Positions 2,220-19,325 of a DNA stretch of 32,000 bases are shown piece by piece (the stretch's first letter is position 1; every line of letters starts with the position of its first letter). Source of the DNA: Candidatus Pelagibacter ubique HTCC1062 (lineage in GTDB: Bacteria > Pseudomonadota > Alphaproteobacteria > Pelagibacterales > Pelagibacteraceae); NCBI RefSeq assembly GCF_000012345.1, contig NC_007205.1:60001-92000 (forward strand), in the 5' to 3' direction. The translations under genes were made by a program, and so were the position numbers. The notes beneath the pieces are model-generated. The model saw only the letters and a list, made by a program, of their open reading frames with translations. It ran no database searches and was not told the DNA's origin.

Positions 2220-2322
2220 TTTCTATCAATTTATAAATATCATCTTTAAATTTATTTTAAAATTTATCAATTGTTAAAGATGCGATTAATTAGCTAAAAT
2301 TAATAATAACTCTTAAAATTTC

Positions 2323-5398: not shown

Positions 5399-5836
5399 TT
5401 AGCAATCATCGCCTCTAGTAAAATTGCCGTTACGACTAAGGATTAATTGGCAAGCTCCATCGATTTCTTTAGCAATTATATTAAAATTTGAAGAACCTAT
5501 GCTTGCAACACAAATTTCATAACCCATATCTTTACCAATTTGATCTCCTCCACCAAACAAAATTGTTTCAATATCATTTGATGTTGATGAGGTAGGTGTG
5601 CAGCTATCATTATCCTGCGTGTAATAATTTCCACTATTTGAATATTCTTCTGTTTGAGCTAGTGATATTTGTAGCATCACATTTTTTGTAGATTTTTCTT
5701 TAGTGCCTGAAATATAACCGCTGTAAGTAATAACTCCTACAGAAGCTAAAATACCAATTATTGCTACCACAACTAAAAGCTCAACCAGGGAAAACCCTAG
5801 TGAGCTTTTAATTTTTATTTTTTTTGTTTCTTGCAA
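5399..5836 (-). CDS. Type IV pilin-like protein (second pilin; possibly minor or PilE-like)
   Basis: Class III signal with prepilin cleavage/methylation motif: SSLG|FSLVELLVVVAIIGILASVG, with Phe+1 and Glu+5. It has an unusually long basic leader (MQETKKIKIKSSLG) and two Cys pairs in the C-terminal half. It starts 9 nt after the upstream pilin stop. Confidence 0.8.
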   Translation of the reverse strand: MQETKKIKIKSSLGFSLVELLVVVAIIGILASVGVITYSGYISGTKEKSTKNVMLQISLAQTEEYSNSGNYYTQDNDSCTPTSSTSNDIETILFGGGDQIGKDMGYEICVASIGSSNFNIIAKEIDGACQLILSRNGNFTRGDDC

Positions 5837-5845
5837 TCGAGATGA

Positions 5846-6331
5846 TTATTCTATTGCAACAGCATTAGTTAGTACGTCAACAGTTGCGTCGTCACCATAC
5901 TGTGTTGAAACGGTAATAGTTCCAGCATCATCCCCTGTTATTGTTGTAACACCTTTTCCTGATGCTAGACATGTTGTACTACCATCTGAAGCCGTTGGCA
6001 CAGTACTACCGTCTGTTACTCCTTTACAAACTGGCGTGTATGTGTTTTTAAAATCTGCTAGTGCAGCAACAGCACCACTCATGATTAAAGCTTCTGTTCT
6101 GCCTGAACATGTTAAATTTCCACTCATTGCAGTAGACTCAGTACCCATGTTACATTTTTGAATTTCAGCAGCTAAATATTTTGTTACTGCCCCTTGGTTT
6201 GATTTAGAAGCATTAATTTTTGCACTCTTAGTGTAACCATTGTAAGCAACAACACCTACCGCAGCTAAAATACCTATAATTGCTACAACAACTAGCAATT
6301 CAATAAGTGTAAAACCTTTATTATTTTTCAT
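5846..6331 (-). CDS. pilA: Type IVa major pilin candidate
   Basis: Short leader plus MKNNKG|FTLIELLVVVAIIGILAAVG (Phe+1, Glu+5). The globular part is Ser/Thr/Gly-rich with two Cys pairs (CNMG..LTC and CKGV..TTC). It is the first gene after a 158-nt divergent intergenic region. Confidence 0.8.
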   Translation of the reverse strand: MKNNKGFTLIELLVVVAIIGILAAVGVVAYNGYTKSAKINASKSNQGAVTKYLAAEIQKCNMGTESTAMSGNLTCSGRTEALIMSGAVAALADFKNTYTPVCKGVTDGSTVPTASDGSTTCLASGKGVTTITGDDAGTITVSTQYGDDATVDVLTNAVAIE

Positions 6332-6489: not shown

Positions 6490-6774
6490 ATGAAATATAA
6501 AGTTACAGATAATGAAAATGTAAGCACTGTTTTTCTTACTGGAGAAATAGATATGGATGTTGCAGATGAGGTAAGAGAAATTGTTTTTCCTTTAATTGAT
6601 GCTGGAAAAGAAGTTCATTTAAATTTAAAAGATGTACCCTACATGGACTCTTCTGGTATATCGATAATTATAGAAAGCAATCAAAGAGCTCGAGAGAAAA
6701 ATACTAAAGTTGAACTTAAAGAGGTTAGTCAACCTGTTGAAAAAGTTCTAGCAATGGCAAGAAAGTTTTTATGA
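6490..6774 (+). CDS. STAS-domain anti-sigma-factor antagonist (SpoIIAA/RsbV family)
   Basis: 94 aa with the conserved phosphorylatable-serine context YMDSSGISIIIES (compare DSSGL in SpoIIAA/RsbV). Its 4-nt ATGA overlap with the next STAS gene suggests translational coupling. Confidence 0.8.
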   Translation: MKYKVTDNENVSTVFLTGEIDMDVADEVREIVFPLIDAGKEVHLNLKDVPYMDSSGISIIIESNQRAREKNTKVELKEVSQPVEKVLAMARKFL

Positions 6775-7070
6775 CATACAAAATTACAGAAGAAGACAAT
6801 ATAAGCACCATATTTTTAGATGGTGAAATAGACATGGATAAAACGGATGAAGTTAAGGGAGTTATCTTTCCTGTTATCGACTCTGGTAAAAATGTTGCTT
6901 TAAATCTAAGTAATGTTCAATACATGGATTCTTCTGGTATTTCAGTTTTAATAGAAAGTCATCAAAAAGCCCTTGAGAAGGGAACCAAGCTTGTCATTAA
7001 AGATGTGAGTAAATCTGTTTTAAAAGTAATCATGATGGCAAAGTTAGAACAAATTTTAAATTTGGAGTAA
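6771..7070 (+). CDS. STAS-domain anti-sigma-factor antagonist, second tandem paralog
   Basis: 99 aa with the same YMDSSGISVLIES motif. 54 of 94 aligned positions are identical to the upstream paralog by my hand alignment. Confidence 0.8.
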   Translation: MTYKITEEDNISTIFLDGEIDMDKTDEVKGVIFPVIDSGKNVALNLSNVQYMDSSGISVLIESHQKALEKGTKLVIKDVSKSVLKVIMMAKLEQILNLE

Positions 7071-7077
7071 ATAAATT

Positions 7078-7512
7078 ATGAGTTTAGAAAACTTTAGTCA
7101 TTCAGAAAAAAAAGATTTTTTAGTTAGCTCAGCAAGTTTGAAAGATGTCAGAGCTTTTTCTAGAGATGTTTTTGAAAAATTTAAAATTGATGAAGATTTA
7201 AGAGAAGAGTTAGTTTTAGCGATTGCTGAAGCTGCGCAAAATATAGTTAAACATGCATATAAAGATATGCCTGACACTCAAGATAAAATGGTTGTAAGAA
7301 TATCTTGTAATGATGATGTTCTAGAGATTTCTTTCTTTGATAAAGGCAAACCAGTAGAAAAAAGCAAAGTTAAACATAGAGCGATCGATGATATTAAACC
7401 AGGTGGACTAGGAACATTTTTCATTCAACAAATTATGGATTCAATTAATTTTGAACCAGGAAAAGAACCCTGGATTAATAATTTAGTTTTAACTAAAAAA
7501 TTAAAAAATTAG
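7078..7512 (+). CDS. RsbW/SpoIIAB-like anti-sigma-factor-type serine protein kinase (HATPase_c)
   Basis: 144 aa with an N-box-like EAAQNIVKHAY and a G-box-like KPGGLGTFFIQQIMD. It lies immediately downstream of the two STAS genes, the classic antagonist-kinase order. Confidence 0.75.
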   Translation: MSLENFSHSEKKDFLVSSASLKDVRAFSRDVFEKFKIDEDLREELVLAIAEAAQNIVKHAYKDMPDTQDKMVVRISCNDDVLEISFFDKGKPVEKSKVKHRAIDDIKPGGLGTFFIQQIMDSINFEPGKEPWINNLVLTKKLKN

Positions 7513-8741
7513 TTAATTAAAGCACCCACATTAAATATTGGTGAGTACATGGCTATCATTAAACCACCAATCATTACTCCCATGAAAACAATCATGATAG
7601 GTTCAATTAAAGCAGACATGTTATCGACTGTAGTATCAAATTCTTCTTCATAATAAGCAGATACTGAATTAAACATTTCATCTAATTGACCTGTTTGTTC
7701 TCCAACAGAAATTAATTGACTAAAAGTTGGTGGGAAGAGTGGTTCTTTTAAAAAAAGTTTTGTTAAGGTATCACCAGAGAACACACCTTTTTTTACACTC
7801 TCTAGTGCATCCGTTATCACATCATTATTACTAACTGATTTTGCAATTTCTAAACTCTCTAATAAATTTACACCAGCAGCACTTAAATTACCTAAAATCA
7901 ATGCAATTCTTGCCAGTAGAGATTTTAAGATCATATCTCCAAAAATAGGTAATTTTAAAATTTGTTTATGCCATCTAAAACGAATTGCAGCATTTCTTTT
8001 TACAATAAAATTAAACCCGAAATATCCACCTATTCCACCAAACAGAATTACTTTTCCACCTGTACCACTTAAAAAATCACTCATTGCCATGATGGTTGCT
8101 GTTGCAGCGGGTAATTCTAAGCCCATTCCATCGTACATTTTTGCAAATACTGGAACTACTTTAATCAACATAAAAGCACTTACAGTAATCGCTACCGTAA
8201 ACATGATCGCTGGATACATTAAAGCTCCCTTAATTTTTTTCTTAATCTTTTCTTTTTTCTCTAATGAATCTACTATTTTAAGTAAAAATACATCTAGCTT
8301 ACCACTTGCTTCACCAGCTTTAATCAAGTTGACATAAATATTATCAAAATATTGAGGATATTTTTCAAAACATTTTGATAGGTTCACACCCCCTTCTAAA
8401 CTTTTTCTAATATCTTCTATAATGTCTTTAAGAGCAGGACTTTCTAATTGGTCCCTTAACATTATTAAAACCTGCAAAATAGGTAAGCCCGCCTTAACCA
8501 TGGTTGCAAATTGCTTTGAGAATATAAGAATTTCTTCTACTTTAACTTTTTTTTTACCAAAAAGAGATGAGCCACCTGATTTTTTTTTTGCTTCACCTTT
8601 TTTTTTCTTAGACTTAATTATGTTGGTGATTATTACTTTTTTTTCTTTTAATAAATGAGAAGCTTCATCAAGGTTGATTGCCTCAATATCTCCTTCTACA
8701 TATTTACCTTCGGATATTCCTTTATAAGTAAAAGCTTCCAT
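7509..8741 (-). CDS. pilC: Type IV pilus inner-membrane platform protein (GspF/PilC family)
   Basis: 410 aa with duplicated GspF-type repeats (FSKQFATMVKAGLPILQVL / LARIALILGNLSAAGVNLLESL) and three TM segments. It follows pilB with a 2-nt gap. Confidence 0.9.
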   Translation of the reverse strand: MEAFTYKGISEGKYVEGDIEAINLDEASHLLKEKKVIITNIIKSKKKKGEAKKKSGGSSLFGKKKVKVEEILIFSKQFATMVKAGLPILQVLIMLRDQLESPALKDIIEDIRKSLEGGVNLSKCFEKYPQYFDNIYVNLIKAGEASGKLDVFLLKIVDSLEKKEKIKKKIKGALMYPAIMFTVAITVSAFMLIKVVPVFAKMYDGMGLELPAATATIMAMSDFLSGTGGKVILFGGIGGYFGFNFIVKRNAAIRFRWHKQILKLPIFGDMILKSLLARIALILGNLSAAGVNLLESLEIAKSVSNNDVITDALESVKKGVFSGDTLTKLFLKEPLFPPTFSQLISVGEQTGQLDEMFNSVSAYYEEEFDTTVDNMSALIEPIMIVFMGVMIGGLMIAMYSPIFNVGALIN

Positions 8742-8743
8742 TT

Positions 8744-10495
8744 TTATTCGCTTGAAAGAATTCTCTCATACTCTCTAAAATTAAGCTCACCAGATGCAAT
8801 CATTCTTCTACCCATATCTTGCATCGTTCTAAATCCTTCCTTAATAGCTATTTCTCTTAATTCAGGAGTGGTTGCTTGTTTTAAAATAGCTTCTTTAATT
8901 GGTTTTGATACCACTAAGATTTCATAAATACCTTGTCGACCTTTGTATCCTGAGTCACTACATTTTGCACAACCTTTACCTTTGATGGCTTTTACTTTTG
9001 AAGCGTCTTCATCACTAAACCCCATATCTTTAAGAACCTTAGGATTAACATCATCATCAGGCACTCTACAATCTTTACAATTTTTTCTAGCTAGTCTTTG
9101 GGCTACAACAAGTTGGCAGGCAGCACTTATTAAATAATCTGGTGTTCCCATGTTTTGTAATCTAGTAATAGTACTTGGGGCATCATTAGTGTGTAGAGTA
9201 CTAAATACTAAGTGACCTGTAAGGGCAGCCTTTAATCCGATATCAACTGTTTCTTTATCCCTCATCTCACCAACTAGAATAATTTCAGGGTCTTGTCTTA
9301 AAAAAGATCTTAAAGCTTTAGCAAAAGTAAAACCGATATCATCTTTAATTTGTACTTGTCCTACACCATCTAATTCATATTCTACAGGATCTTCAGCTGT
9401 TAAAATATTTAAATGGGGCTTACTTACTTCTTTTAAAATACTATATAACGTTGTTGATTTCCCAGATCCTGTTGGTCCAGTTACCAAAATTAATCCCTGA
9501 CTACCGTGAATTCCTTTTCTTAGACTTTCTAAATCTTGCTTTTCAAAATTTAATTGTTCAAGGGTAATATCTCCTGCATCTTTGTTAAGAATACGCATAA
9601 CAATTCTCTCATTATTTGCAGTAGGTAAAATTGATAAACGTAAATCAACTACTTTATTGCCAATTTTAAAATTAATGGCTCCATCTTGTGGCAATCTTCT
9701 TTCTGCAATATCTAATTTACCCATAATTTTAAATCGAGTAACCACTGCTCCATAGTTGTCATGTAAAAACTGTCTATAGGTTTCTTGTTCTTGAAGCATA
9801 CCGTCTAATCGGTATCTTACTCTTGAACTAAATCGGTAAGGCTCAATATGAATATCACTGACACCCATTTTAATTGCATCTGCTACCACTGCCGTACTAA
9901 ATTTTATTACCTCTGACTCATTTTCAATTGCTTCAATATCTTCTTCTGGTTTATTGTCTAAAACTTCCCCTGCATCTCCTAAATCTGTTTCAAAAGTTTT
10001 TGTTTTTCTCCTATTCTCATTTCGAATTGACGCAATAGTTACTTCATCTGTTTCACTTGATAATCTTTCAATATATTCAGAAATATCACCTATTTTTGCA
10101 GCATGAAGTTCTATGTTTTTTTTTGTAATAGCTTTTAAATTTCGCATCAATCCCAATTTTGAACTATCTGGGATTGCCATGTGTAAAGTTTTTCCATCAA
10201 TTTTAAATGGTGCTACAAAATTCATCTTAATATAGTTTGATGGTAAAACTGTTTTTACTTCTTCAGTAATTTCAACTGACTTTAGATCAATTATTTCTAG
10301 ATTTTGTTCTTTAATTAATAAATCAATTATTTTTTTTTCATCAGTAAGCTTTAATTCAAATATTGCATCAATTTGAGATTTATTGTTTTCAGTGCTTACT
10401 TTTTTAATATCTATTAAATCTTTTCCAGAAATAATGTCATTATCAATTAAGACATTAACTAAATTAATTTCACTCTCTCTACTTATTTTAAACAT
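8744..10495 (-). CDS. pilB: Type IV pilus assembly (extension) ATPase, GspE/PilB family
   Basis: Walker A GPTGSGKSTT, Asp box and Walker B (ILVGEMRD), His box (GHLVFSTLHTND) and a C-terminal tetracysteine cluster (CKDC...CAKC). An N-terminal T2SSE_N-like domain is present. Confidence 0.9.
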   Translation of the reverse strand: MFKISRESEINLVNVLIDNDIISGKDLIDIKKVSTENNKSQIDAIFELKLTDEKKIIDLLIKEQNLEIIDLKSVEITEEVKTVLPSNYIKMNFVAPFKIDGKTLHMAIPDSSKLGLMRNLKAITKKNIELHAAKIGDISEYIERLSSETDEVTIASIRNENRRKTKTFETDLGDAGEVLDNKPEEDIEAIENESEVIKFSTAVVADAIKMGVSDIHIEPYRFSSRVRYRLDGMLQEQETYRQFLHDNYGAVVTRFKIMGKLDIAERRLPQDGAINFKIGNKVVDLRLSILPTANNERIVMRILNKDAGDITLEQLNFEKQDLESLRKGIHGSQGLILVTGPTGSGKSTTLYSILKEVSKPHLNILTAEDPVEYELDGVGQVQIKDDIGFTFAKALRSFLRQDPEIILVGEMRDKETVDIGLKAALTGHLVFSTLHTNDAPSTITRLQNMGTPDYLISAACQLVVAQRLARKNCKDCRVPDDDVNPKVLKDMGFSDEDASKVKAIKGKGCAKCSDSGYKGRQGIYEILVVSKPIKEAILKQATTPELREIAIKEGFRTMQDMGRRMIASGELNFREYERILSSE

Positions 10496-12051
10496 TATAA
10501 AATTCTTGGAGCGATAAATACCAATAACTCGTTCATTGTATCAGAATTTGATTTTCCACTAAGTACTTTTCCTAGAATTGGTACTTTTGACGTTCCTGGA
10601 ACACCTTGTCTATTATTCGCTACGTTATTTTTTTTAATACCACCAATTACAACTATATCCCCATCAGCTACTAATAATTTTGTATTTATCTCCATTTTAT
10701 TTACACCTACTGATGCTGCATTTGCTCTATTTGGAGTATCATTGTTTACTTGAATTGAAAGCATAACGTTTCCATCACCTATGATATTAGGAGTAACTAT
10801 CAGTTTTAATGATGCATCAACTGGTTTATCTTCCCCTTCTCCACCATCAATATAAATTGTTTCACCCTGATTAATACTTGCTTGTTGATTATCTAATGTA
10901 AATAATTTTGGATTAGATACTGTTTTTGATAAGCCTTGAGCTTCTAAAAAATCAAGTTCAAGTTTTAAAACAGCAGAACCTGTTTTTTTCAATATTCCAA
11001 TTCCACTTGTTGCAGCAGCTGACCCAAAATTTACTAAATTATCTGTTCCAGCACCGCTTGTAAAAGCACCTGTTGAATCAGATAATGCAGCCCCTGAACC
11101 AGATGCAGCTCCTACACTACTACCTCCTTGTGTACCACCCATTCTTAAACTTTTTCTTGTATAAGCGGCTCCAAGTCTTTTTCCTAAACTTTGCTCAAAT
11201 GTTGAAGTAGCTTCAACTATAAAAGCTTCTATTAAAACCTGTTTTGTTCTTTTATCAATTTCTCGAATAACTTTATCAACGATATCTAAATCTTTCTCTT
11301 TACCTCTAACAATAATTGATCTTGTGGTTGCTTCTTCCGTTACTTGTATTGGTATAAAATTTCCATTCGTTCCAACAGTTGTAAATAATTCTGTGATTGT
11401 GGCTTTAGCTTCTGATGGAGTTATATAATAAAGTCTAAAAATTTCTGAAATAATTGGTTCTACTGAATCTTCTAATTCAACTTTTTTCTTAACTGCTGAA
11501 GCTCTCGCTGATTTATAACCTTCTTGTGACGTTAGATTAGCAGGAGTAGAAACTCTAATAATATTACTTGCTACATCTATGTCTGCTGCATAATTTTTTA
11601 AATCTAATAATGCATTAAATGCTTTATCCCATGGAACATTATCTAACTCTGCACTTATTGATCCTGCCACATCGTCACCTACTAAAATATTAATTTGACC
11701 AACTTCAGACATTAATTTCATTGCTTCTTTAAAATCTAAAGCTTGAAATTTAAAAGAAACATTTTGTTTTAAAGATTTGAAATCTTCCGAAATTAATAAA
11801 TAATTTCTCTCTTTAACAGATGATATTTGTTTCCTTTTTTTAAGCTTTACGACATCACCTTCAGCAGGAGTTGGTCCCATTTCTACACTTTTTTCAACCT
11901 CTAGTTTTCCAGTTTTCTTGATATCAGTTTTTATTAGTGGGGTGTCGTGTTTAAAAGAACCAGTGTTTTTAGCAAATTTTTCAGCACAACCTGTTAAAAA
12001 AATAAATAAAAAAGGTAAAATTAAAAATGATATTCTTTTTTTAAATTTCAT
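10495..12051 (-). CDS. pilQ: Type IV pilus secretin with an N-terminal lipobox
   Basis: C-terminal secretin signature (VVIGGIKKNNVANNRQGVPGTSKVPILGKVLS...ELLVFIAPRIL) and N0/secretin_N-like repeats. The signal peptide ends in LTGC. Its stop shares one nucleotide (10495) with the pilB start. Confidence 0.85.
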   Translation of the reverse strand: MKFKKRISFLILPFLFIFLTGCAEKFAKNTGSFKHDTPLIKTDIKKTGKLEVEKSVEMGPTPAEGDVVKLKKRKQISSVKERNYLLISEDFKSLKQNVSFKFQALDFKEAMKLMSEVGQINILVGDDVAGSISAELDNVPWDKAFNALLDLKNYAADIDVASNIIRVSTPANLTSQEGYKSARASAVKKKVELEDSVEPIISEIFRLYYITPSEAKATITELFTTVGTNGNFIPIQVTEEATTRSIIVRGKEKDLDIVDKVIREIDKRTKQVLIEAFIVEATSTFEQSLGKRLGAAYTRKSLRMGGTQGGSSVGAASGSGAALSDSTGAFTSGAGTDNLVNFGSAAATSGIGILKKTGSAVLKLELDFLEAQGLSKTVSNPKLFTLDNQQASINQGETIYIDGGEGEDKPVDASLKLIVTPNIIGDGNVMLSIQVNNDTPNRANAASVGVNKMEINTKLLVADGDIVVIGGIKKNNVANNRQGVPGTSKVPILGKVLSGKSNSDTMNELLVFIAPRIL

Positions 12052-12053
12052 AA

Positions 12054-12560
12054 TTATTTTGTTCTTTCTGTAATTTTATTATTAAAATTTATCACTAAGA
12101 GAGAGTTTTCATTTTTTTCAAAAACTGCTTCTCTATTGTTAAGTCCAACTAATTTTACTCCAGGGCTTAATTCTTCAAACCTAGCTAAAGTAATTATATT
12201 TCCACTTGAATTAATTAAAGATACGAACCCATCATCATTTGCAGAGGTCATTATCCCAACTAATTTAAACTTATATAAGCTCATTTCATTTTGTGCCTCT
12301 TCTGGATTACTTGATAAAATTGTATTACCACCAGTTAATGAACTATCTCCAGCAAAAGGATCGTTTAATGGAAGAGGCTCTTCATCTTTAATTTCTGATG
12401 AAATATTCGATTGTGAATTTGCCTGTTTTTCTTTGATCTTTTTATTTATCTCTTTAGCTTTATCAATAATGTTTTGCTCTTTATCATGACTATCAGCCAT
12501 GGAAACTTTTGATAGCAACATAAAAAACACTGAAATAATGATTATTTTAAAAAAATTCAT
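12054..12560 (-). CDS. pilP: PilP-like pilus assembly protein
   Basis: Signal peptide, a low-complexity linker and a C-terminal beta-domain resembling PilP (YKFKLVGIMTSANDDGFVSLINSSGNIITLARFEELSPGVKLVGLNNREAVF). Its position between the pilO-like gene and pilQ fits. Confidence 0.55.
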   Translation of the reverse strand: MNFFKIIIISVFFMLLSKVSMADSHDKEQNIIDKAKEINKKIKEKQANSQSNISSEIKDEEPLPLNDPFAGDSSLTGGNTILSSNPEEAQNEMSLYKFKLVGIMTSANDDGFVSLINSSGNIITLARFEELSPGVKLVGLNNREAVFEKNENSLLVINFNNKITERTK

Positions 12561-13224
12561 TTGGTAACCCCACTATTGTTAACGTACCTTTTACTTTTAT
12601 CGCTCCAGTTGTATTCCCTTTTACCACCTGAATAGACTCTTTGTCAAAGTTTAACATTTTGTTAGAAAGCGATAGAGCTCTTTTAAATTTTATGTAACCA
12701 ATAAAATTACCATCAATTTCAAAATCAACAGGGATCAAATAATAGGCAATATTTGCAACATTTTTAACTTGGTTGTTTTTCTTTTTTTTCGTTTTTTTAC
12801 CGTCTGCTTGGGCTAAGGCTTGTGCTTTTAATACTTCTTGAATTACCTTTTTTTCAATTCTAGTGATTACTAGATCATTTTGTCCGGCATATTCACTTAA
12901 TGTTTGATAAAGACCCTCTACTTCAGCTTTAGAATGAAACAAGCTAGAGTATTTTTCATAATCAGGCTTAAGTTTTTTAATTCTTGCTCTCATTGAATAA
13001 ATTTCAGAAGTAAATTTTGCAGTTTCTTGTATTTTCAAATTCATGTCGTCCAATTTAGCTTTTCTAGACTCAACCATTGGATTTAAAATTGCGTAATAAA
13101 TTATTAAGAAAAAAACAATTGCACCAAAGATTATTCCTATTTTTATAAGAGTTTTTTTATCAGCTAATTTTGTAATCTGATCCTTGATATCAGACATGTT
13201 AATATTTTTTAAATCTATATCCAT
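12547..13224 (-). CDS. pilO: PilO-like bitopic pilus alignment protein
   Basis: One N-terminal TM (LIKIGIIFGAIVFFLIIYYAIL), then a coiled coil and a ferredoxin-like C-terminal region. The call rests on synteny between PilN and PilP, so it is mainly positional. Confidence 0.55.
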   Translation of the reverse strand: MDIDLKNINMSDIKDQITKLADKKTLIKIGIIFGAIVFFLIIYYAILNPMVESRKAKLDDMNLKIQETAKFTSEIYSMRARIKKLKPDYEKYSSLFHSKAEVEGLYQTLSEYAGQNDLVITRIEKKVIQEVLKAQALAQADGKKTKKKKNNQVKNVANIAYYLIPVDFEIDGNFIGYIKFKRALSLSNKMLNFDKESIQVVKGNTTGAIKVKGTLTIVGLPNEFF

Positions 13225-13226
13225 TG

Positions 13227-15770
13227 CTATATTTTACCTGTTTTAATTTTTACAAACACTCTAAAGCCTTTCATTGTAGCACCACCTGCTGTAGATTTTG
13301 GTAATCGCATTGATGATAAAGATGCTTGCTCAACCAATTTTTGATTTCCTAAATTTTCTATAAATTTCAATATATCTTGATCACTTGCAGCTATTCCTTG
13401 AATAGTTAATCTTCTAGATCCATTAAATTCAACTTGATCAAATTTTACACGGTTTGGAACACTTGAGGCTACTTGAGCTAAAATTCTATAAGTTAATTCT
13501 TTATTTGATTTAAGTGTTCTACTTAATTTTAAAGACGTATTAATTACACTAAGTTCTTTTGAAACTATTTTTTTCTGTTTAATAATTTTAGCATGATCTA
13601 TTTTTACAGTTTCATATTGTTTTAATTTTTTATTATAGGAAGCAATATTCCAAAAAGATAAACCAAATAATACCACATAAATTGCAACTACAGCAGCAGT
13701 AATACCCTTGAATGCAAAACCTGAAATTGCTTTCATCTTCTTTTGCTTCATTACATTTGATCTATCTGGAAGAAGATTTATATTTTTAACTGCAGTAACA
13801 AATTTATAATAACCAAAGACATCAAGTTTTCTAAAGGCTAAGCCAACAGAAGTAGATAGATAAGATCTATTTAACTTATTATCTAAAATTTGTTGATACT
13901 GACTTGGAATTTTTAATCCTTCAGTAGGATCAAAAGTGTTAAATCCAACATTCATTAAAATTTTTCTAAAACTTCCTAAATATTCGTCTACATTTTTGAT
14001 ATCTGAAACAACTTTTATGTTTCGAATTCTCTTTTCATATTTAGTCTCAAAATCTTGAATTGCTTGCTTAACTTGAGTAACATATCTTCTAACTAATCCT
14101 TCTTTTTCTTCAGTATCTTGAGAATCTTGTAAAATTTTTCTATCTTGCCCTCTAATAAAAATATCAGTTATTATTGGGTTATTATTATAGAGGATCATTA
14201 AATAATTTTCATCTAATCCAAATTCTAAAACAGCAGTTAAATTGGCATCCTCAGTTTTATTTGTTATTTGATTAACTTGATCAACTGATGACTTTAAAGC
14301 AAAACATTTAACATCTATGATTACAGGATTTAAACCTGCATTTTTAATTATTGAAGTATAACTATTTATATCTGTTAATTTTGATGCAACGAATAAAATA
14401 TCCATTGTATTTTCTTTATCATTTCTATTTATGACTTGATGAAAAATAGAATAATCTTCCAAACTATCTGTTAGTTGAACTAGGTTTTCCCACAATGAAT
14501 TAGTTTCGATTGCTTTATTTAATTCATCTTCTTTCATTAAAGGTGCGGTGACTACTCTTATGATTGCACTAGTTACCGGAATAGCAATTGCTGCATTTGG
14601 TGAAGTTATTTTGTATTTTTGAATTGCTAATACTAATTCTTCTGAAAATTTATCCGCATTATCAATTGGAGTACTATCATCTGTAATGTCGACGGGGTGA
14701 ATATGTAATTTTTCTAACACCCATTGATTAGCTTTGTTACTAGAAACTTGGACTATTCTTATTTCTTTATTTGCTAACTCAATACCAATTATTTCTTCGC
14801 CTTGAACACTAGATTTACCTAATTTGGATTTGAAAAAATTTTGTATTTTTGATTTATAATTTCCAACTTTAGAATTATTAAAAGATGATTTTTTTATATT
14901 TTTAGCAAAATCTGGTTTTTTAATTTTAATTTCCTTAATTTTTCCAAAAATATTTGATAATTTACTTTTTACCTGATCTTGGGTAGATATTTCTGAGTTT
15001 TCATTTAATGGAACACTTGAAGTTTGTGGTTGTGCTTCATTATTACTTTGATTGGTTGTTGAAATATCAATTTGTGAAGATTCACCCTCTTCTGGCTTAA
15101 TATTTTCTTCAATTTTTAATTTTTTACTTTCTTCATGAACATCATCAAACCATTTTTCCAAAATTGGTATTGCATCATCTAAATTTGTTGTTCCAGAAGA
15201 TGAAATTTTTTGTTTACCATCAATATAAAGTCTACCTACCCAGTTTCTTGATTTAAGTTCACCTTTATATTTATCTTGCCTTACATATATATGTAGTCTT
15301 CCATCTTTTTTATGAATTACCTCATGCTCTTTTTTTTGTTCCTCATTATTAGTATTTGATGCACTTACATTTTGCTCAACAGATTCATCTTGAGATTGTA
15401 AAGTTTCTGAATTTTCAGTTAAATTATCATTTTCATTGGATTTTTCTGATTCATTATTATCAGTTTCTTGAGGATTTAAAGTATCAGTTGAATCGTTTTC
15501 AGATTGGTTTTCCTGATCACTCTTTAAAGTCTCTTCATCATTATTAGTATTTGATGCACTTACATTTTGCTCAACAGATTCATCTTGAGATTGTAAAGTT
15601 TCTGAATTTTCAGTTAAATTATCATTTTCATTGGATTTTTCTGATTCATTATTATCAGTTTCTTGAGGATTTAAAGTATCAGTTGAATCGTTTTCAGATT
15701 GGTTTTCCTGATCACTCTTGAGAGTATCTTCCTCTTTATAATCAAATTTGTCTTTATTATCTTCGTCCAT
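13227..15770 (-). CDS. PilM-PilN fusion protein with a ~325-aa N-terminal extension
   Basis: Residues ~325-660 are PilM-like actin-fold (EIIGIELANKEIRIVQVS...). Residues 663-847 are PilN: the INLLPDR motif at about 13764-13790, a TM (ITAAVVAIYVVLFGLSFW) and a periplasmic domain. The N-terminal extension is acidic and Asn/Ser-rich with a duplicated 65-aa unit, followed by a Lys-rich block. Confidence 0.75.
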   Translation of the reverse strand: MDEDNKDKFDYKEEDTLKSDQENQSENDSTDTLNPQETDNNESEKSNENDNLTENSETLQSQDESVEQNVSASNTNNDEETLKSDQENQSENDSTDTLNPQETDNNESEKSNENDNLTENSETLQSQDESVEQNVSASNTNNEEQKKEHEVIHKKDGRLHIYVRQDKYKGELKSRNWVGRLYIDGKQKISSSGTTNLDDAIPILEKWFDDVHEESKKLKIEENIKPEEGESSQIDISTTNQSNNEAQPQTSSVPLNENSEISTQDQVKSKLSNIFGKIKEIKIKKPDFAKNIKKSSFNNSKVGNYKSKIQNFFKSKLGKSSVQGEEIIGIELANKEIRIVQVSSNKANQWVLEKLHIHPVDITDDSTPIDNADKFSEELVLAIQKYKITSPNAAIAIPVTSAIIRVVTAPLMKEDELNKAIETNSLWENLVQLTDSLEDYSIFHQVINRNDKENTMDILFVASKLTDINSYTSIIKNAGLNPVIIDVKCFALKSSVDQVNQITNKTEDANLTAVLEFGLDENYLMILYNNNPIITDIFIRGQDRKILQDSQDTEEKEGLVRRYVTQVKQAIQDFETKYEKRIRNIKVVSDIKNVDEYLGSFRKILMNVGFNTFDPTEGLKIPSQYQQILDNKLNRSYLSTSVGLAFRKLDVFGYYKFVTAVKNINLLPDRSNVMKQKKMKAISGFAFKGITAAVVAIYVVLFGLSFWNIASYNKKLKQYETVKIDHAKIIKQKKIVSKELSVINTSLKLSRTLKSNKELTYRILAQVASSVPNRVKFDQVEFNGSRRLTIQGIAASDQDILKFIENLGNQKLVEQASLSSMRLPKSTAGGATMKGFRVFVKIKTGKI
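15344..15733. repeat. Two-copy 195-bp in-frame tandem duplication inside the pilMN 5' region
   Basis: 15344-15524 is identical base for base to 15539-15719 (181 nt, hand-checked), giving a period of 195 nt or 65 codons. The unit encodes EETLKSDQENQSENDSTDTLNPQETDNNESEKSNENDNLTENSETLQSQDESVEQNVSASNTNN. Confidence 0.9.
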
Positions 15771-15834
15771 AAAACTTATAAATAAAAATTAATATTTAAA
15801 TTGTTAATTGATTCTCTAACACAAAATTAATAAA

Positions 15835-15845
15835 ATTCTAACACA
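15835..15845 (-). promoter_or_regulatory. Candidate extended -10 element (TGTGTTAGAAT read on the minus strand) for the pilMN operon
   Basis: The reverse complement of attctaacaca gives TG-T-TAGAAT, i.e. TGn plus a 5/6 match to TATAAT. It lies ~65 nt upstream of the pilMN ATG (15770). No good -35 sits at 17 nt; TTGAAC at 15862-15867 is 21 nt away. AT-rich context makes chance matches likely. Confidence 0.25.
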
Positions 15846-16138
15846 AGATTATAATCATTATGTTCAAAATGGGTTGAATTTAATAAGAAACTATAAAATA
15901 TTCAATTAAATCAACAGTTTATTAAAATCATTGAAAAAAATTAAATTTAAGATATTTTTTTCTAAATAATATTTTCTCTAACACATTTATCATAATTTTA
16001 TCTTTTTATATTGTGTTAGAAATTTAATATTTTTTTCTATTTTTAAAAAATAAGTAAAATAGCTATTTTTTATTAAAACAACTTTTAATTGTTTTTTGTG
16101 TGAGAGAAAATTTTTTTTGTGTGAGAGAAAAATTTATT

Positions 16139-16149
16139 TGTGTTATAAT
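16139..16149 (+). promoter_or_regulatory. Candidate extended -10 element TGTGTTATAAT on the plus strand
   Basis: Perfect TGnTATAAT within the duplicated context tttatttgtgttataatt. It points rightwards into the palindrome array, with no ORF downstream. Confidence 0.2.
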
Positions 16150-16167
16150 TTTTTTAATTTTTTTTGT

Positions 16168-16311
16168 TTAGAATTATTCTAATATATTTTTTTTTCCTAC
16201 ATTAGAAATATTCCAAACTATTTTTTTTCTCTTTAGAAAGATTCTAATATATTTTTATTTTACTTTAGAAAGATTCTAATATATTTTTTGCAAATTTTAG
16301 AATTATTCTAA
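16168..16311. repeat. Five-unit ~32-bp tandem array, each unit carrying the palindrome TTAGAA-N3-TTCTAA
   Basis: Palindromes lie at 16168-16182, 16202-16216 (TTCCAA, one mismatch), 16233-16247, 16265-16279 and 16297-16311. Spacings are 34, 31, 32 and 32 nt. Each is followed by a TATATTTTT-like tract. Confidence 0.85.
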
Positions 16312-16502
16312 TTTATAAAAAAAAAAAATTATTTTTTTTCTCTAACACAAAAATTTTATTCTAACACATTTAAAAAAAAAAAAAATTATTTCATTTTGTG
16401 TTAGAAAATTAACATAATATTCTTTTTTAAAAAAGTAAGCAAAATCAACGTTTTTAATATTATGAATATAAAACATAAAATGTGTTAGAGCTATATTTAT
16501 TT

Positions 16503-16513
16503 TGTGTTATAAT
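16503..16513 (+). promoter_or_regulatory. Candidate extended -10 element TGTGTTATAAT on the plus strand (second copy)
   Basis: Same 20-nt context as 16139 (tttattttgtgttataatt). It points toward the less AT-rich repeat segment 16690-17114 and would run antisense into the 3' end of the GAF::PP2C gene. Confidence 0.2.
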
Positions 16514-16586
16514 TATTAATATTATCATATTTTTAAAAAAGTCAATAAAATCAACATTTTTTATATTTTCAATAAATTTATTGATT

Positions 16587-16660
16587 TGTGTTAGAGATAA
16601 TTTTAATTTTTATCCTATGTGTTAGAAATAATTTATATTTTTTATGCTGTGTGTTAGAGA
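16587..16660. repeat. Three-unit ~32-bp tandem array starting with TGTGTTAGAR-ATAA
   Basis: Units start at 16587, 16618 and 16650 (spacings 31 and 32 nt): tgtgttagagataatttt..., tgtgttagaaataattta..., tgtgttagagataaatat... Confidence 0.8.
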
Positions 16661-16857
16661 TAAATATGAATATTAACAAAAGCTCAAACAGCCTTACATC
16701 ACTCATCCCTTTGGGATAATATATATAAATTTTAACATTGATCCATCAATTGTTGATTATTGCGGATGGCAATATTAGATTTTGATACAATTTATATTAT
16801 GGTTAAAGCCTAAATCTGGGGACTAAACTCAAATTAACTAATTAAATCTGATTTGTG

Positions 16858-16958
16858 GCAAATTATGAGAGATTTCACTCTAAATTAGAGATTTGACTAC
16901 CAGTATAGGATTTATAGCAAATTATGAGAGATTTCACTCTAAATTAGAGATTTGACTA
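16858..16958. repeat. 59-bp-period direct repeat (42-nt identical core x2, plus a degenerate third unit to ~17026) with an internal palindrome CTCTAA-A-TTAGAG
   Basis: 16858-16899 equals 16917-16958 (gcaaattatgagagatttcactctaaattagagatttgacta). Internal palindromes lie at 16878-16890 and 16937-16949. The third unit (~16968-17026) retains TTCTAA...GATATTTGAC...TTAGAA. Confidence 0.85.
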
Positions 16959-17114
16959 GGATTGCAGGATTTATTTCTAATTATCAGATATTTGACCCAA
17001 AATTAGAATTATTACATGAAACTGGGGGTAATTACTCTTATTAACTGGAAACTATCCCATAAACATTTTTACTCTATCTTAAAGAGTGTAAATAAAAACA
17101 TCTATCCATAATTA

Positions 17115-18461
17115 TTAACCATCAACCGTTACAATTGTTAAATCATCCTTTTGTATTCGACCAGATTTAATTATATCCTCGATAATCTTGTTTAATCTTT
17201 CATGGTTTGGAATTTGTTGATACTTTTTTATATAATCTTTAAATCCTTCTGCCTCTAACATATTTCCTTTAGCATCTCTTATTTCCGTAATACCATCAGT
17301 AAAAATATACATTGAGCTGTTTGAAAAATTAATTTTAGTTTCTTTAAATTTAAACTTAGGAGCAATGCCTAAAGGAGGTCCTGCTTCTTCAAAATTAGAA
17401 AAGTTTCCATCTTTAGAATAAATTAACGGAGGTTCATGACCAGCGTTTGATAAAGTTAATTCTTTTTTGTTACTATCGTAAATTCCAACCAGCATTGTTA
17501 CAAACATTCCTCTTGAAGTAGTTTCACAAATTTCTGTATTTAAAATATCTAAAAGACCTGCTGCAGAAAAATTTGTTTTACTTAAACATCTATAAAGACT
17601 AGATGCTTTAGACATTAGTAATGAAGATTTAATTCCTTTACCTGAAACATCTGCAACTCCAAATCCATAAACTCCATTGGATAATTCTGAAAAATTATAA
17701 AAGTCTCCAGAAACAACCTTGGCAGGAATATTTATTCCAGCAATAGGAAAATTTTCTTTAATGTTTTGAGATAGTAATGTTTTTTGAATCTCTCCAACAA
17801 TTTCTATTTCTTTTTCTATTCTATTTTTAACAATCAAATCTTTTGCCATCTTAGCATTTCTAATTGCTAATGCAGCAGGACCAGATAAAGTTTCTAAAAG
17901 TTTTCTATCGCTTTCTTCAAAAAGTTTGTTGTCTGTTTTTTTATTTAAACAATGAATAACACCAATACATTCATCTGAAACAATTAATGGTGAACATAAA
18001 ACAGAATAAGTTGTAAAATTTGTTTTATTATCTAAATCAAAATAAAATTCTGCAATTTCTCTTACATCCTTTCTAACATCTCCAACTCTTATACATTGTT
18101 TCATGAGTGCTGCTTTTCCCATGACACCTTGAGTAATTGGAATTTCAAAATCTTCTAGATATGCTTGGTGTTTTGATGCAATACATTGAAAGTTTTGCTT
18201 ATCATTATCTATTAAAAAAATGTTAGCAGCTTGAGCATTAATTCTTTTAATAATTAGCTCTAATGAAGTTTGTAGTGTTTCTTTTAAATCAAGAGTTTTA
18301 GCAAACTCCTGGCTCATTTTTGTAACCAATTCTAAGTCTTTAACGCTCGTATTGTCGACTTTTATTGTTTCTGTTTTTTTAGCACCAAAAAACATGTTAT
18401 TTATAAATTGATATTCATTAAATTTTTGATAGTTTTGAGACTGATGGAACTCATTATTCAT
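17115..18461 (-). CDS. GAF-domain-containing PP2C/SpoIIE-type serine phosphatase
   Basis: The N-terminal half is GAF-like (LETLQTSLELIIKRINAQAANIFLID...GVMGKAALMKQCIRVGDV...CSPLIVSDECIGVIHCLNK). The C-terminal half has PP2C motifs: SGDFYNFS, VADVSGKGIKSS, FTDGITEI and DDLTIVTVDG. Confidence 0.8.
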   Translation of the reverse strand: MNNEFHQSQNYQKFNEYQFINNMFFGAKKTETIKVDNTSVKDLELVTKMSQEFAKTLDLKETLQTSLELIIKRINAQAANIFLIDNDKQNFQCIASKHQAYLEDFEIPITQGVMGKAALMKQCIRVGDVRKDVREIAEFYFDLDNKTNFTTYSVLCSPLIVSDECIGVIHCLNKKTDNKLFEESDRKLLETLSGPAALAIRNAKMAKDLIVKNRIEKEIEIVGEIQKTLLSQNIKENFPIAGINIPAKVVSGDFYNFSELSNGVYGFGVADVSGKGIKSSLLMSKASSLYRCLSKTNFSAAGLLDILNTEICETTSRGMFVTMLVGIYDSNKKELTLSNAGHEPPLIYSKDGNFSNFEEAGPPLGIAPKFKFKETKINFSNSSMYIFTDGITEIRDAKGNMLEAEGFKDYIKKYQQIPNHERLNKIIEDIIKSGRIQKDDLTIVTVDG

Positions 18462-18560
18462 AGTCCTAACTTCTACTTACACCTTACAGACGCAATGATG
18501 CTTGTACAATATTGCATTGATGGTTTCATAGAACTGTCCTCCAAAATTAAATTATAAGTT

Positions 18561-19325
18561 GTGTTATATCTTATAGCATTTATCTTTGGAAGTATATGGG
18601 GTAGCTTTAGTAACGTTTGTATCCATAGAATTCCTGACGATATAAGCGTTGTAACAGGAAGATCCCACTGTCCATCCTGTAAAACCCTAATTAAATGGCA
18701 CGATAACATTCCATTATTTTCATATTTGTTTTTAAAAGCAAAATGCAGAGGTTGTTCGGCTAAAATTAATATTAAATATTTTTTAGTAGAATTAATATCA
18801 GCAATAAATTTTGTAGTAATTTTTCATTTCTTTGGAGTTTCATTAACTACTCTTCTTTTTTTTATTTTAAGCATCTGTTTTGTGATTATTTTTTTTATTG
18901 ATTTAAAACATTTCATAATTCCAAATGAGTTAACATACCCTCTTATGATAATTGGTTTATTAAAATCATTTGATCCAAATTTAAATACCACTCTGTTTCC
19001 AAATTTAGTTAACTCTTTAATAGGTGGTTTGTTTGGTTACATAATCATTTGGTTAATAATTTTTATTTATAAAAAATTAAGAAACAAAGAAGGAATGGGT
19101 TTGGGTGATGCTAAATTACTTTCTGTAATTGGTTTTTGGTTTGGATGGGCTTCAATTCCTTTTGTAATATTTTTTTCATCTGTCATTGCACTTTTAAGTG
19201 TTGTCCCAGATATAATTAAAAATAAAAAAGATCTTTCGTCTCAAATTCCTTTTGGTCCTTATTTAATTATAGGAAACTTAGTTTTTCTTATTTTTAATGA
19301 ACAGATAAGATTATTTTTGAACTAA
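18561..19325 (+). CDS. pilD: Prepilin peptidase / N-methyltransferase (A24 family)
   Basis: GSFSNVCIHRIP, the cysteine cluster CPSC...CRGC, multiple TM segments and the active-site context GMGLGDAKLL. It begins with GTG; an in-frame TAA at 18555-18557 prevents any upstream extension. Confidence 0.9.
   Translation: MLYLIAFIFGSIWGSFSNVCIHRIPDDISVVTGRSHCPSCKTLIKWHDNIPLFSYLFLKAKCRGCSAKINIKYFLVELISAINFVVIFHFFGVSLTTLLFFILSICFVIIFFIDLKHFIIPNELTYPLMIIGLLKSFDPNLNTTLFPNLVNSLIGGLFGYIIIWLIIFIYKKLRNKEGMGLGDAKLLSVIGFWFGWASIPFVIFFSSVIALLSVVPDIIKNKKDLSSQIPFGPYLIIGNLVFLIFNEQIRLFLN

Follow-up and report, generated by a model that had tools for sequence, protein, structure and literature searches.

SAR11 is the ocean's most abundant bacterial group, with very few regulators and almost no non-coding DNA, and nonetheless it retains 0.5-1.3 kb of non-coding DNA ahead of its pilus assembly operon. 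What is this DNA for, and which protein reads it? We address these questions in a 32,000-nucleotide stretch of the Candidatus Pelagibacter ubique HTCC1062 genome (the window), which contains the Candidatus Pelagibacter type IV pilus cluster. A preliminary description of the window had pointed to a repeat-filled, GC-poor island without any ORF of 60 aa or more, set among tightly packed genes, and this outline holds. Its coordinates (15771-17114) are exact, the longest ORF inside it is 47 aa, the other gaps in the window do not exceed 158 nt between the 28 accepted genes (many of which overlap), and single 60-nt lines of the island fall to 6.7-12% GC. Overall the island has a GC content of 19.0%, compared with 30.7% for the whole window, with 15.0% in 15800-16659 and 27.5% in 16660-17114. 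The nested repeats are borne out by copies of TCTAACACA and by tandem arrays with 32-nt, 21-nt and 59-nt units; there are 11 exact copies of TCTAACACA in the window, all within 15815-16658, against 0.33 expected window-wide. The worry that the island might be an assembly artefact can be dismissed, as the same gap is present in at least 11 independent assemblies. A single MAG and ten metagenome contigs taken from separate samples have it at lengths of 1254-1375 nt. Apart from SNPs and 1-nt indels, the only differences among these are two larger indels associated with repeats, namely the gain of a 32-nt repeat unit and the loss of 91 nt. The island also accounts for the frequent breaks of SAR11 assemblies at this locus. 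It consists of two parts, an array (15771-16659) and a species-specific filler (16660-17114), and the genes and segments around them are as follows.

7509-13224, reverse strand: remaining genes of the presumed island-driven operon, with junctions of -14 to +2 nt
7509-8741, reverse strand: platform protein PilC
8744-10495, reverse strand: ATPase PilB
10495-12051, reverse strand: secretin PilQ
12547-13224 and 12054-12560, reverse strand: two ORFs at the PilO and PilP positions, with no Pfam match
13227-15770, reverse strand: pilMN fusion gene, 847 aa
15129-15329, reverse strand: coding region of a near-invariant N-terminal domain, aa 148-214, EHEVIHKKDGRLHIYVRQDKYKGELKSRNWVGRLYIDGKQKISSSGTTNLDDAIPILEKWFDDVHEE
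15339-15739, reverse strand: 195-nt tandem duplication (two copies) in the acidic N-terminal coding region
15771-17114, no strand: gene-free interval from the pilMN start to the GAF-SpoIIE stop (ORF and gap analysis)
16660-17114, no strand: species-specific filler, 455 nt, GC 27%
16850-17026: 59-nt tandem repeat (three copies) in the filler, with CTCTAATTTAGAG palindromes at 16878-16890 and 16937-16949
17115-18461, reverse strand: GAF-SpoIIE (PP2C) phosphatase gene, the upstream neighbour

The array is built from short sites in both orientations, interspersed with a second type of element, the B box, and with tandem repeats.

15814-16659, no strand: motif array, 15 CTCTAACACAA/TTGTGTTAGAG-family sites and 4 B boxes
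15814-15824, forward strand: site CTCTAACACAA (TTGTGTTAGAG in the pilMN sense), promoter-proximal, with the ATG 44 nt away
15836-15846, forward strand: site TTCTAACACAA, proximal, with the previous site 22 nt away
15861-15873, reverse strand: conserved box CCCATTTTGAACA, flanked by the final B box and the proximal sites
15901-15914, reverse strand: B box TTGATTTAATTGAA, proximal copy
15976-15986, forward strand: site CTCTAACACAT
16011-16021, reverse strand: site TTCTAACACAA, an inverted pair with 15976-15986
16050-16063, reverse strand: B-box variant GCTATTTTACTTAT, of the type in integrase element L094
16087-16143, reverse strand: 21-nt tandem repeat with two variant sites CTCTCACACAA (16096-16106, 16117-16127)
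16138-16148: TTATAACACAA, adjacent to the 21-nt array and extending slightly beyond its end
16167-16316, no strand: 32-nt tandem array, 4.7 units, with a TTAGAA-N3-TTCTAA palindrome in each
16340-16350, forward strand: site CTCTAACACAA
16359-16369, forward strand: site TTCTAACACAT
16396-16406, reverse strand: site TTCTAACACAA
16435-16449, reverse strand: B-box variant GTTGATTTTGCTTAC
16480-16490, reverse strand: site CTCTAACACAT
16502-16512, reverse strand: variant site TTATAACACAA
16541-16554, reverse strand: B box TTGATTTTATTGAC, canonical B1 form
16586-16659, reverse strand: three sites spaced 31-32 nt (16586-16596, 16617-16627, 16649-16659)

The 32-nt array has only the TTAGA half in common with the motif and is lineage-specific, with one extra unit in contig L002; the 59-nt units likewise keep only this half. 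Candidates for sigma-70 promoter elements are the conserved CCCATTTTGAACA and the B boxes, and the CCCATTTTGAACA box is a candidate for the -10 or start region of the pilMN promoter.

Every one of the 57 Pelagibacter species examined has a regulatory region of ~540 nt upstream of pilMN (57/57). In its canonical form this region carries eight TTGTGTTAGAG/CTCTAACACAA sites that are nearly invariant and keep a fixed order, most of them spaced by 21 nt, together with two B boxes, and judged from its sequence the array in the window is an expanded, roughly duplicated version of this region. The order in 23 aligned species is two sites, B1, two sites, one inverted site, B2, CCCATTTTGAACA, three inverted sites and the ATG, and in these alignments invariant motifs are separated by scrambled sequence. 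The canonical form has three sites between the likely promoter and the ATG, and this window has two. In the upstream regions of the 57 species (39.5 kb) there are 432 exact copies of the 9-mer, compared with three in 683 kb of flanks, the exclusivity of the motif covering the window, about 0.7 Mb of flanks and a metagenome sample. Neighbouring sites in the same orientation are spaced by 21 nt (124 cases), or by 23, 85-86, 116-117 or 127 nt. A helical repeat of 10.7 fits best, a period that the lineage-specific 32-nt spacings of the window also fit; the phasing statistic is modest, the species represent one inherited architecture, and the A-to-a orientation switches are out of phase. Within the population, SNPs fall in 3 of 100 motif columns and in 83 of 1152 other columns, which is the expected direction but a weak trend.

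The association with pilMN is equally consistent. The array remains beside pilMN where extra genes are inserted, in the divergent lineage L096 with a different upstream neighbour gene, and in L097. Among 120 metagenome stretches carrying the motif pair, the N-terminal domain of PilMN adjoins the array in 87; the remaining 33 are stretches cut off by a contig end, unrelated minisatellites, or matches of two to four copies, mostly on contigs of higher GC. Wherever the pairing can be evaluated, array and domain occur together, also in lineages where synteny differs. Viral contigs gave four matches to the motif pair, none encoding PilMN, the N-domain or SpoIIE; of those characterised, one is a giant-virus coding repeat and one phage iterons. 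It had been proposed to look in related genomes for motif conservation against length variation, and this is what is seen: the region is retained with its motif content while varying in length, and it goes with pilMN. Meyer et al. 2009 (PMC2704228) used GC and conservation to rank intergenic regions, and we found no mention of the pilus locus in that paper or its supplements.

The filler has a different character. It evolves about twice as fast as the array, has no homologue that we could find outside its own species, and occupies the place where most other species have, next after SpoIIE, a conserved gene for a 95-100-aa membrane protein; a tblastn search of the window revealed no remnant of this lost 100-aa gene. 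No terminator-like site follows the GAF-SpoIIE gene. The island in this species probably grew by repeat-unit duplication and by loss of the small neighbouring gene. The earlier suggestion that retention of 1.34 kb points to function is only partly borne out, since ~455 nt of it is species-specific, fast-evolving filler that replaces a gene. Could the whole island then be a decaying and functionless relic of an integrated element, carried along beside pilMN? The lineage-specific, fast-evolving 455-nt segment, the inserted genes that mark this as a variable spot in some species, and the many SAG contigs that break at the island would all be in keeping with decay. We regard it as highly improbable, however, given that the eight 11-bp sites are invariant and fixed in order and spacing across species in which the PilM core is only 70% identical and the inter-site sequence is randomised, and that non-coding DNA has otherwise been purged from SAR11 genomes (window gaps; PMC2704228).

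What might read the array is suggested by the gene next to it. PilMN consists of an acidic disordered N-terminus, an integrase-type domain, a linker, PilM and PilN, of which Pfam recognises only PilM_2 and PilN; the copy number of the 195-nt duplication varies between strains (PilMN of 847 or 782 aa). The N-domain is 65 aa long, basic and almost invariant, with ~94% identity between lineages in which the PilM core is ~70% identical. The sequence on either side of it is of low complexity and cannot be aligned. The beta-sheet part of the N-domain is basic (+5) inside an acidic tail of -36. HMMER searching of 1.84 billion representative proteins shows that, besides PilM fragments, its only homologues are the N-termini (60-70 residues) of tyrosine integrases and one fusion protein, with a Gp59-type helicase-loader C-domain as the partner. 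The integrase matches are 411-436-aa proteins aligned over residues ~5-75 (E 1e-11 to 2e-5), in which Phage_integrase and SAM-like domains are present and a match to the phrog_1 integrase family begins at residue 8. No Pfam match to the N-domain is significant (the best is DUF6538, E=0.013), nor is any to PDB sequences or PHROG. An AF2 model (pLDDT 83.8) has four strands and a C-terminal helix, and Foldseek comparison with PDB and BFVD gave nothing at E<0.19, without significant matches to lambda Int, Tn916 Int or DNA-binding folds; the Mx8 integrase appears only at E=0.6. The integrase-type N-domain of the adjacent PilMN and the likeness of the repeats to integrase arm-type sites are both points absent from the preliminary description. 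None of the papers searched links Pelagibacter PilM to an integrase-type domain or discusses this intergenic region.

The integrases that share this domain are themselves accompanied by similar repeats. In five of six integrase contexts there are two direct repeats 11 nt apart and one inverted repeat just before the int ATG; contexts with such CTC-NN-ACAC-type repeats are L091, L093, L094/L095, L098 and L101, and the sixth, L092 (P0116), has no such repeats. The motif-related sequences flanking int are CTCGTACAC, CTCATACACG, TCGTACACAA with TTTGTGTTATAG, TCGTACAT and TTTGACACC, and CTCATACAC is, like CTCGTACAC, a motif-like repeat flanking integrase genes. The 5.3-kb element L094 has repeats at both ends, next to tRNA-Leu att repeats, and the B-box 15-mer ATTTTACTTACTTTT is restricted to pil upstream regions and the integrase-element contigs L094/L095. 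The sites of the pil array are spaced by 21 nt, compared with 11 nt beside integrase genes. Known phage genomes and viral contigs contain no match to this integrase family. The position of the domain in integrases, together with the neighbouring repeats, suggests that it binds DNA. PilMN and the island are not classed as an integrase or an att site because PilMN lacks a catalytic domain, there is no recombinase gene in the window, and a tRNA scan of the window found none.

Because the motif resembles integrase sites and PilMN has an integrase-related domain, this pilus protein may bind and control its own operon. We give an even chance to the reading that the island is the cis-regulatory region of pilMN-(two ORFs)-pilQ-pilB-pilC and a domesticated integrase arm-site array predicted to be bound by the PilMN N-domain. 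It draws on observed motif conservation, order and spacing, on exclusive linkage to a domain-bearing pilM, on homology to integrase N-termini and on the similar repeats beside int. The earlier suggestion of a regulatory hub or protein-binding scaffold fits an array conserved directly upstream of pilMN; its alternative of small RNAs is not supported. The array could instead be a genuine operator or enhancer read by another trans-acting protein, such as a transcription factor or an integrase encoded elsewhere, with the N-domain serving some other role such as protein-protein contacts; conservation, spacing and position do not name the binding protein, and the N-domain has no DNA-binding fold match in Foldseek. 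We consider another reader unlikely, though, as array and domain stay together in every evaluable case even where synteny has changed, the only homologues of the domain are integrase N-termini beside look-alike repeats, and no recognisable DNA-binding protein is encoded by the other genes in the window.

The sites might instead act in RNA, the proximal ones as part of the pilMN 5' UTR and the distal ones, which are oppositely oriented, within an upstream or divergent transcript, as small RNAs or as an RNA that sponges a protein. CsrB-type sponge RNAs do repeat a motif many times, and here transcription probably covers the two or three sites situated within 45-110 nt of the ATG. We find this quite improbable. 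The cluster of small RNAs that had been proposed has no Rfam match even at E<=1 and no conserved RNA structure, RNAalifold giving 0 pairs in the promoter-proximal consensus across 18 species, and the folding of the 455-nt segment does not stand out from that of shuffles (z -1.1). A scan of the island found no terminators, and a consensus promoter scan found 17 promoter-like matches in it against 16.0 in shuffles. Furthermore, the proximal sites are in the opposite orientation in the L096 lineage, which alters the RNA and not the duplex, and the 21-nt spacing is more readily explained on duplex DNA.

Inverted integrase-type sites also bring to mind a phase-variation switch, in which a promoter flanked by such sites is flipped or deleted by a tyrosine recombinase. 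The sites resemble integrase arm sites, there are inverted-orientation sites around the B boxes, the B2 box is reversed in three species (L075, L084 and L089), and strains differ by the 32-nt unit gain and the 91-nt loss. Against this, neither a catalytic recombinase domain in PilMN nor a recombinase gene in the window is available to act on them, a single site orientation is present in 11 population contigs and is constant across the 23 aligned species, and the gains and losses of units match what replication slippage is expected to produce; we therefore view a switch as very improbable.

A replication origin, with an AT-rich unwinding region and iteron-like or divergent DnaA boxes, is barely credible, although the island is long and AT-rich, its 9-mers cluster in both orientations about two helical turns apart, TGTGTTAGA matches TGTGNAWAA at 7 of 9 positions, and the cluster has low locus-tag numbers in HTCC1062 (SAR11_0049-0061). 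The island contains no DnaA box at <=1 mismatch and no CtrA site, the flanking genes are co-oriented, the adjacent genes are for pili rather than replication, the array accompanies pilM into a different genomic neighbourhood in L096, and two complete genomes place the locus about 0.75 of the way along the record. Third-codon-position GC/AT skew on either side of the island is too noisy to read at 17% GC3, and we located nothing usable in the literature on the SAR11 origin.

Under the PilMN-binding model, the functional core would be the 11-bp sites TTGTGTTAGAG and CTCTAACACAA, in both orientations and roughly in helical phase with interspersed B boxes, descended from integrase arm-type sites and read by PilMN itself through its domesticated 65-aa integrase N-terminal DNA-binding domain. 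With the PilN helix as their anchor in the inner membrane, several PilMN molecules would fill the phased sites, with the long disordered linkers allowing them to reach the DNA. By occupying sites between promoter and ATG they would feed the abundance or assembly state of the pilus platform back onto transcription of the operon, and binding would also tether the pil locus to the membrane; we infer both the direction of regulation and the position of the pilMN promoter. The 32-nt and 59-nt repeats are left unaccounted for by this model. Membrane anchoring is atypical for regulators. More tentatively, we suggest that a structural component of the pilus captured an integrase arm-binding domain together with its arm-site array, yielding a predicted membrane-anchored DNA-binding protein that forms an intasome-like complex on its own promoter.

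Several known systems resemble parts of this arrangement. In lambda Int, the N-terminal domain of a tyrosine integrase reads the attP arm-type sites. The pil array shares with lambda-type attP several 9-11-bp direct and inverted sites in a few hundred AT-rich base pairs with an accessory box between them, and with integrase arm systems the homology of the PilMN domain to integrase N-termini and the presence of repeats at the ends of elements with related integrases. It differs in that the pil locus has neither a catalytic domain nor a core recombination site, the domain is fused to PilM-PilN, and the presumed output is gene control, not recombination. ToxR, TcpP and CadC are membrane-anchored one-component transcription regulators, and PilMN is similarly bitopic in the inner membrane, with an N-terminal domain in the cytoplasm that would bind repeated promoter sites. 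Unlike them, PilMN is a structural part of the machine that it would regulate, and its domain is integrase-derived rather than of the winged-helix OmpR type and sits between long disordered segments.

Plasmid iterons (P1, F, pSC101, RK2) lie adjacent to an autoregulating gene for a Rep initiator and take part in 'handcuffing'. As in these, identical sites are grouped about two helical turns apart in both orientations beside the gene of the putative binder, but the pil array has no replication initiator, DnaA boxes or replication link, and is chromosomal and conserved with pilM. PilR enhancer sites upstream of pilA act with sigma-54 on the pilin gene and, like the putative binding sites here, lie in tandem upstream of a type IV pilus gene; the target of the pil array is instead the assembly operon, and the pilin genes here (5399-6331) have no motif copies. 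The AP2/ERF transcription factors of plants, whose proposed origin is in the DNA-binding domains of integrases or homing endonucleases, are a precedent for recruiting a mobile-element DNA-binding domain to gene regulation, albeit in a different kingdom and with a different fusion partner.

If PilMN does read the array, this would be a new mode of control for type IV pilus systems and a clear case in which a mobile-element DNA-binding module and its target sites were domesticated together. The regulator-poor SAR11 would gain direct feedback from pilus platform to transcription, with the locus physically tied to the envelope. The 65-aa domain and the 11-bp motif would then provide a handle on the timing of the SAR11 pilus, with relevance to DNA uptake, surface attachment and phage susceptibility.

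The window is a type IV pilus gene cluster, as judged by Pfam scans of all long ORFs, and encodes pilins, PilC, PilB, the secretin PilQ, a PilM-PilN fusion (PilMN), a prepilin peptidase, PilY1, minor pilins and a PilT-like ATPase. The HTCC1062 pilus cluster corresponds to about SAR11_0049-0061 and adjoins hypervariable region 1 (PMC2217521; PMC3870248). All of the loci related to the window are from Candidatus Pelagibacter/Pelagibacteraceae (SAR11). Interleaved with the pilus genes (window 69-4560, 6490-7512 and 17115-18461) is a partner-switching set of two Amt-SpoIIE (ammonium transporter-PP2C) fusions, two STAS proteins, an RsbW-like kinase and a GAF-SpoIIE phosphatase. Sigma-70 and sigma-32 are, to our knowledge, the only sigma factors described for this organism, and the location of the set inside the pilus cluster may reflect a coupling of nitrogen sensing to pilus control. 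A 78-aa ORF (18473-18709, minus strand) overlapping the 5' end of the oppositely oriented prepilin peptidase gene has no family match, is not called on related contigs, and is probably spurious.

The preliminary description drew attention to a gene-free, AT-rich and repetitive island in this otherwise compact segment, and we confirm it, with these coordinates.

13227-15770, minus strand, pilMN
15771-17114, gap between the start of pilMN and the stop of the GAF-SpoIIE gene
17115-18461, minus strand, GAF-SpoIIE phosphatase gene

The longest ORF in the gap has 47 aa, short of the 60-aa cut-off, and every other gap among the 28 accepted genes is 158 nt or shorter. Its GC content averages 19% (15% for 15800-16659, 27% for 16660-17114), with single lines down to 6.7-12%, and it contains tandem arrays with 21-, 32- and 59-nt units. 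The sequence TCTAACACA occurs in 11 exact copies in the 32-kb window, all within 15815-16658, with 0.33 expected. The same gap, 1254-1375 nt long, is present in one MAG and on ten contigs from different metagenome samples, and this recurrence on independent contigs rules out a collapsed or chimeric assembly join. Differences among the copies are SNPs, 1-nt indels and two larger indels associated with repeats, one adding a 32-nt repeat unit and the other removing 91 nt. Many single-cell and MAG contigs (L015, L021, L028, L031, L038, L045, L052, L055, L082, L086, L087 and L090) stop no more than a few hundred bases past SpoIIE, and SAR11 assemblies seem to break repeatedly at the AT-rich repeat array.

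Alignment of 23 species reveals a single fixed order of elements upstream of pilMN, composed of 11-nt sites in both orientations and a second type of conserved motif, the B box. Read in the pilMN sense these are:

Element 1, two CTCTAACACAA sites, spacing 21 nt
Element 2, B box 1 (B1), TTGTTGATTTTATTGACTTTTT
Element 3, two further sites, spacing 21 nt
Element 4, one inverted site, TTGTGTTAGAG
Element 5, a variable stretch of about 75 nt
Element 6, B box 2 (B2)
Element 7, CCCATTTTGAACA
Element 8, three inverted sites, spacings 23 and 21 nt
Element 9, ~20 nt, followed by the pilMN ATG

The motifs are invariant in all 23 species and the intervening DNA is scrambled; this contrast, in a genome that carries hardly any surplus DNA, is difficult to reconcile with a functionless relic. 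Spacings between sites of the same orientation peak at 21, 23, 85-86, 116-117 and 127 nt, and the best-fitting helical period is 10.7 (mean resultant length 0.74 over the full set of sites, 0.93 among sites of one orientation). The lineage-specific 31-32-nt spacings of the window match this period too (0.62 for 15 sites; random 95th percentile 0.44). This phasing favours a protein bound to one face of the duplex, although a single layout inherited by all of the species limits it to supportive evidence. The orientation of B2 is flipped in three species, as an invertible switch might produce, but the window holds no recombinase and there is no orientation polymorphism apart from B2, and we regard a switch as very improbable.

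The exact 9-mer is present in 432 copies in 39.5 kb of pilMN upstream regions versus 3 in 683 kb of flanks. The array remains directly upstream of pilMN despite the insertion of genes for a putative MFS-type transporter and a putative HTH protein after the small ORF. It also precedes pilMN (four CTCTAACACAA and three TATAACACAAG sites before the ATG) in the divergent lineage L096, where the gene next upstream encodes an ATPase and is divergently oriented. A second divergent fragment, L097, has CTCTCACACAA directly upstream of pilMN. When metagenome contigs were scanned for pairs of motif copies 9-13 nt apart, 120 stretches were recovered, and in 87 of these the array is adjoined by the 65-aa N-domain of PilMN. 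The other 33 comprise contigs that stop within ~310 nt of the array, perfect minisatellites unrelated to it, and matches of two to four copies, mostly on higher-GC contigs (0.33-0.65). The long, perfect minisatellites containing TGTGTTAGA or TCTAACACA have 10-30-nt units, lie on metagenomic contigs of unrelated organisms (L138, L147, L166, L192 and L223; GC 0.35-0.40), and are a source of false positives in motif-pair scans. Within the window the motif is absent from other pilus promoter regions, those of pilin genes included. Across the window, ~0.7 Mb of flanks and the metagenome sample, the array is linked exclusively to pilMN. A replication origin in the island is scarcely credible, as the array moves with pilM and DnaA and CtrA boxes are absent from the island. 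Action at the RNA level is unlikely, since Rfam searches gave no matches, structure is not conserved, and the proximal sites are flipped in L096; the small-RNA cluster first suggested for the island is disfavoured by the same Rfam and structure results, and the conserved sites tied to pilMN support the protein-binding and regulatory roles suggested alongside it.

PilMN (847 aa) comprises a 147-aa acidic low-complexity tail, the 65-aa N-domain, a 113-aa linker, PilM and PilN. The tail has a net charge of -36 and the beta-sheet part of the N-domain is basic. Tail and linker are unalignable across species, and the N-domain is ~94% identical between lineages whose PilM cores are ~70% identical. 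A 195-nt tandem duplication (97% identical; 15339-15739) lies in the acidic N-terminal coding region, and its copy number varies among strains, giving 847-aa or 782-aa products (782 aa in L006/L007). An HMMER search with the N-domain over the full set of 1.84 billion representative proteins returned 130 matches, including many PilM N-terminal fragments and the first 60-75 residues of 411-436-aa proteins (E 1e-11 to 2e-5) that carry tyrosine-recombinase catalytic and SAM-like domains. A third context is P0094, a 149-aa protein from the same search that joins the N-domain to a C-terminal domain of the T4 Gp59-type helicase-loader family (Pfam E 1.9e-8). Its occurrence in PilM, integrase and Gp59-type contexts argues that the N-domain is a portable module, in the position of the arm-type DNA-binding domain of integrases. 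A confident alignment-based AlphaFold model (pLDDT 84) consists of four strands followed by a long C-terminal helix. Neither PDB nor BFVD gave a significant structural match with Foldseek, and there is no significant Pfam family, so the N-domain is at most a candidate member of the classical arm-binding fold.

Five of the six related integrase contexts examined adjoin whole or partial tRNA sequences (tRNA-Leu in four), a location like that of integrated elements. Just before the int ATG, each of these five has a pair of direct repeats at 11-nt spacing and a single inverted copy.

L094 and L095, CTCGTACAC
L093, CTCATACACG
L098, TCGTACACAA and TTTGTGTTATAG
L101, TCGTACAT
L091, TTTGACACC

The sixth, a 1.6-kb contig (L092), has neither a tRNA nor repeats of this kind. 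CTC-NN-ACAC is common to the int repeats and the pil motif CTCTAACAC. In the L094 element (~5.3 kb), which encodes an integrase, an N6/N4 DNA methyltransferase and small ORFs, the repeats are confined to the two ends, next to a duplicated tRNA-Leu segment, the layout expected of arm-type sites. Between its tRNA repeat and arm repeats is an 18-nt string that matches the pil B2 box exactly, and within ~0.7 Mb the 15-mer ATTTTACTTACTTTT is restricted to 17 pil upstream regions and L094/L095. These small, low-GC integrative elements at tRNA-Leu form a family (L094:1-5515; also L095, L098-L100, L091, L093 and L101) that is absent from the phage genome collection searched.

The two segments of the island have different histories. 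Of the 57 Pelagibacter species in which both flanking genes are present, most have the order SpoIIE, a conserved gene for a 95-100-aa membrane protein, ~540 nt of AT-rich DNA, and pilMN. The membrane protein has an N-terminal membrane helix (MFAISKVMIF...YWATSNVCRYNF...; for example L014:7362-7664, with equivalents in about 60 loci). Its gene is missing from, and has been lost in, the window's species and nearest relatives, and the window has 16660-17114 instead. The site motifs upstream of pilMN are invariant among related genomes, and 16660-17114 has no homologue outside its own species. This segment folds no better than shuffled sequence, has 9.5% variable columns within the population versus 4.8% in the remaining gap, and is regarded as filler from gene loss or replacement. 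The ~890 nt at 15771-16659 are an expanded, roughly doubled form of the canonical 540-nt region, with 15 sites versus 8 and four B boxes versus two. The 32-nt (16167-16316) and 59-nt (16850-17026) repeats contain the perfect palindromes TTAGAA-N3-TTCTAA and CTCTAATTTAGAG, respectively, which look like TTAGAG motif halves fused head-to-head with the CACA/TGTG half removed; both arrays have the half-motif only and fall outside the proposed model. The interval between SpoIIE and the pil array is a site of variable content, and in L070, L072, L073, L078, L080, L081 and L088 it holds 1.5-3 kb of extra genes, encoding a 409-aa multi-pass membrane protein (transporter-like by eye), a 483-aa protein, and a 200-aa protein that is helix-turn-helix-like by eye (LPRETVRRKV).

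What the sequences themselves establish, namely the conservation, order and spacing of the motifs, the homology of the N-domain and the look-alike repeats at integrase genes, would most likely reflect a domesticated integrase arm region in the island core, whose former reader domain is now part of PilMN. That some other protein reads the array is a less likely alternative. New here is the combination of a pilus assembly protein that carries an integrase-type domain and, before its own gene, a site array of integrase type; we found no mention of it in the literature searched. PilMN molecules would bind the phased sites through the N-domain, and we also infer a role for the B boxes. With two or three of the sites positioned downstream of the likely promoter and ahead of the start codon, bound PilMN would feed back, with a sign that we infer, on pilMN-pilQ-pilB-pilC transcription, and because PilMN is membrane-anchored, it would also hold the pil locus at the envelope.
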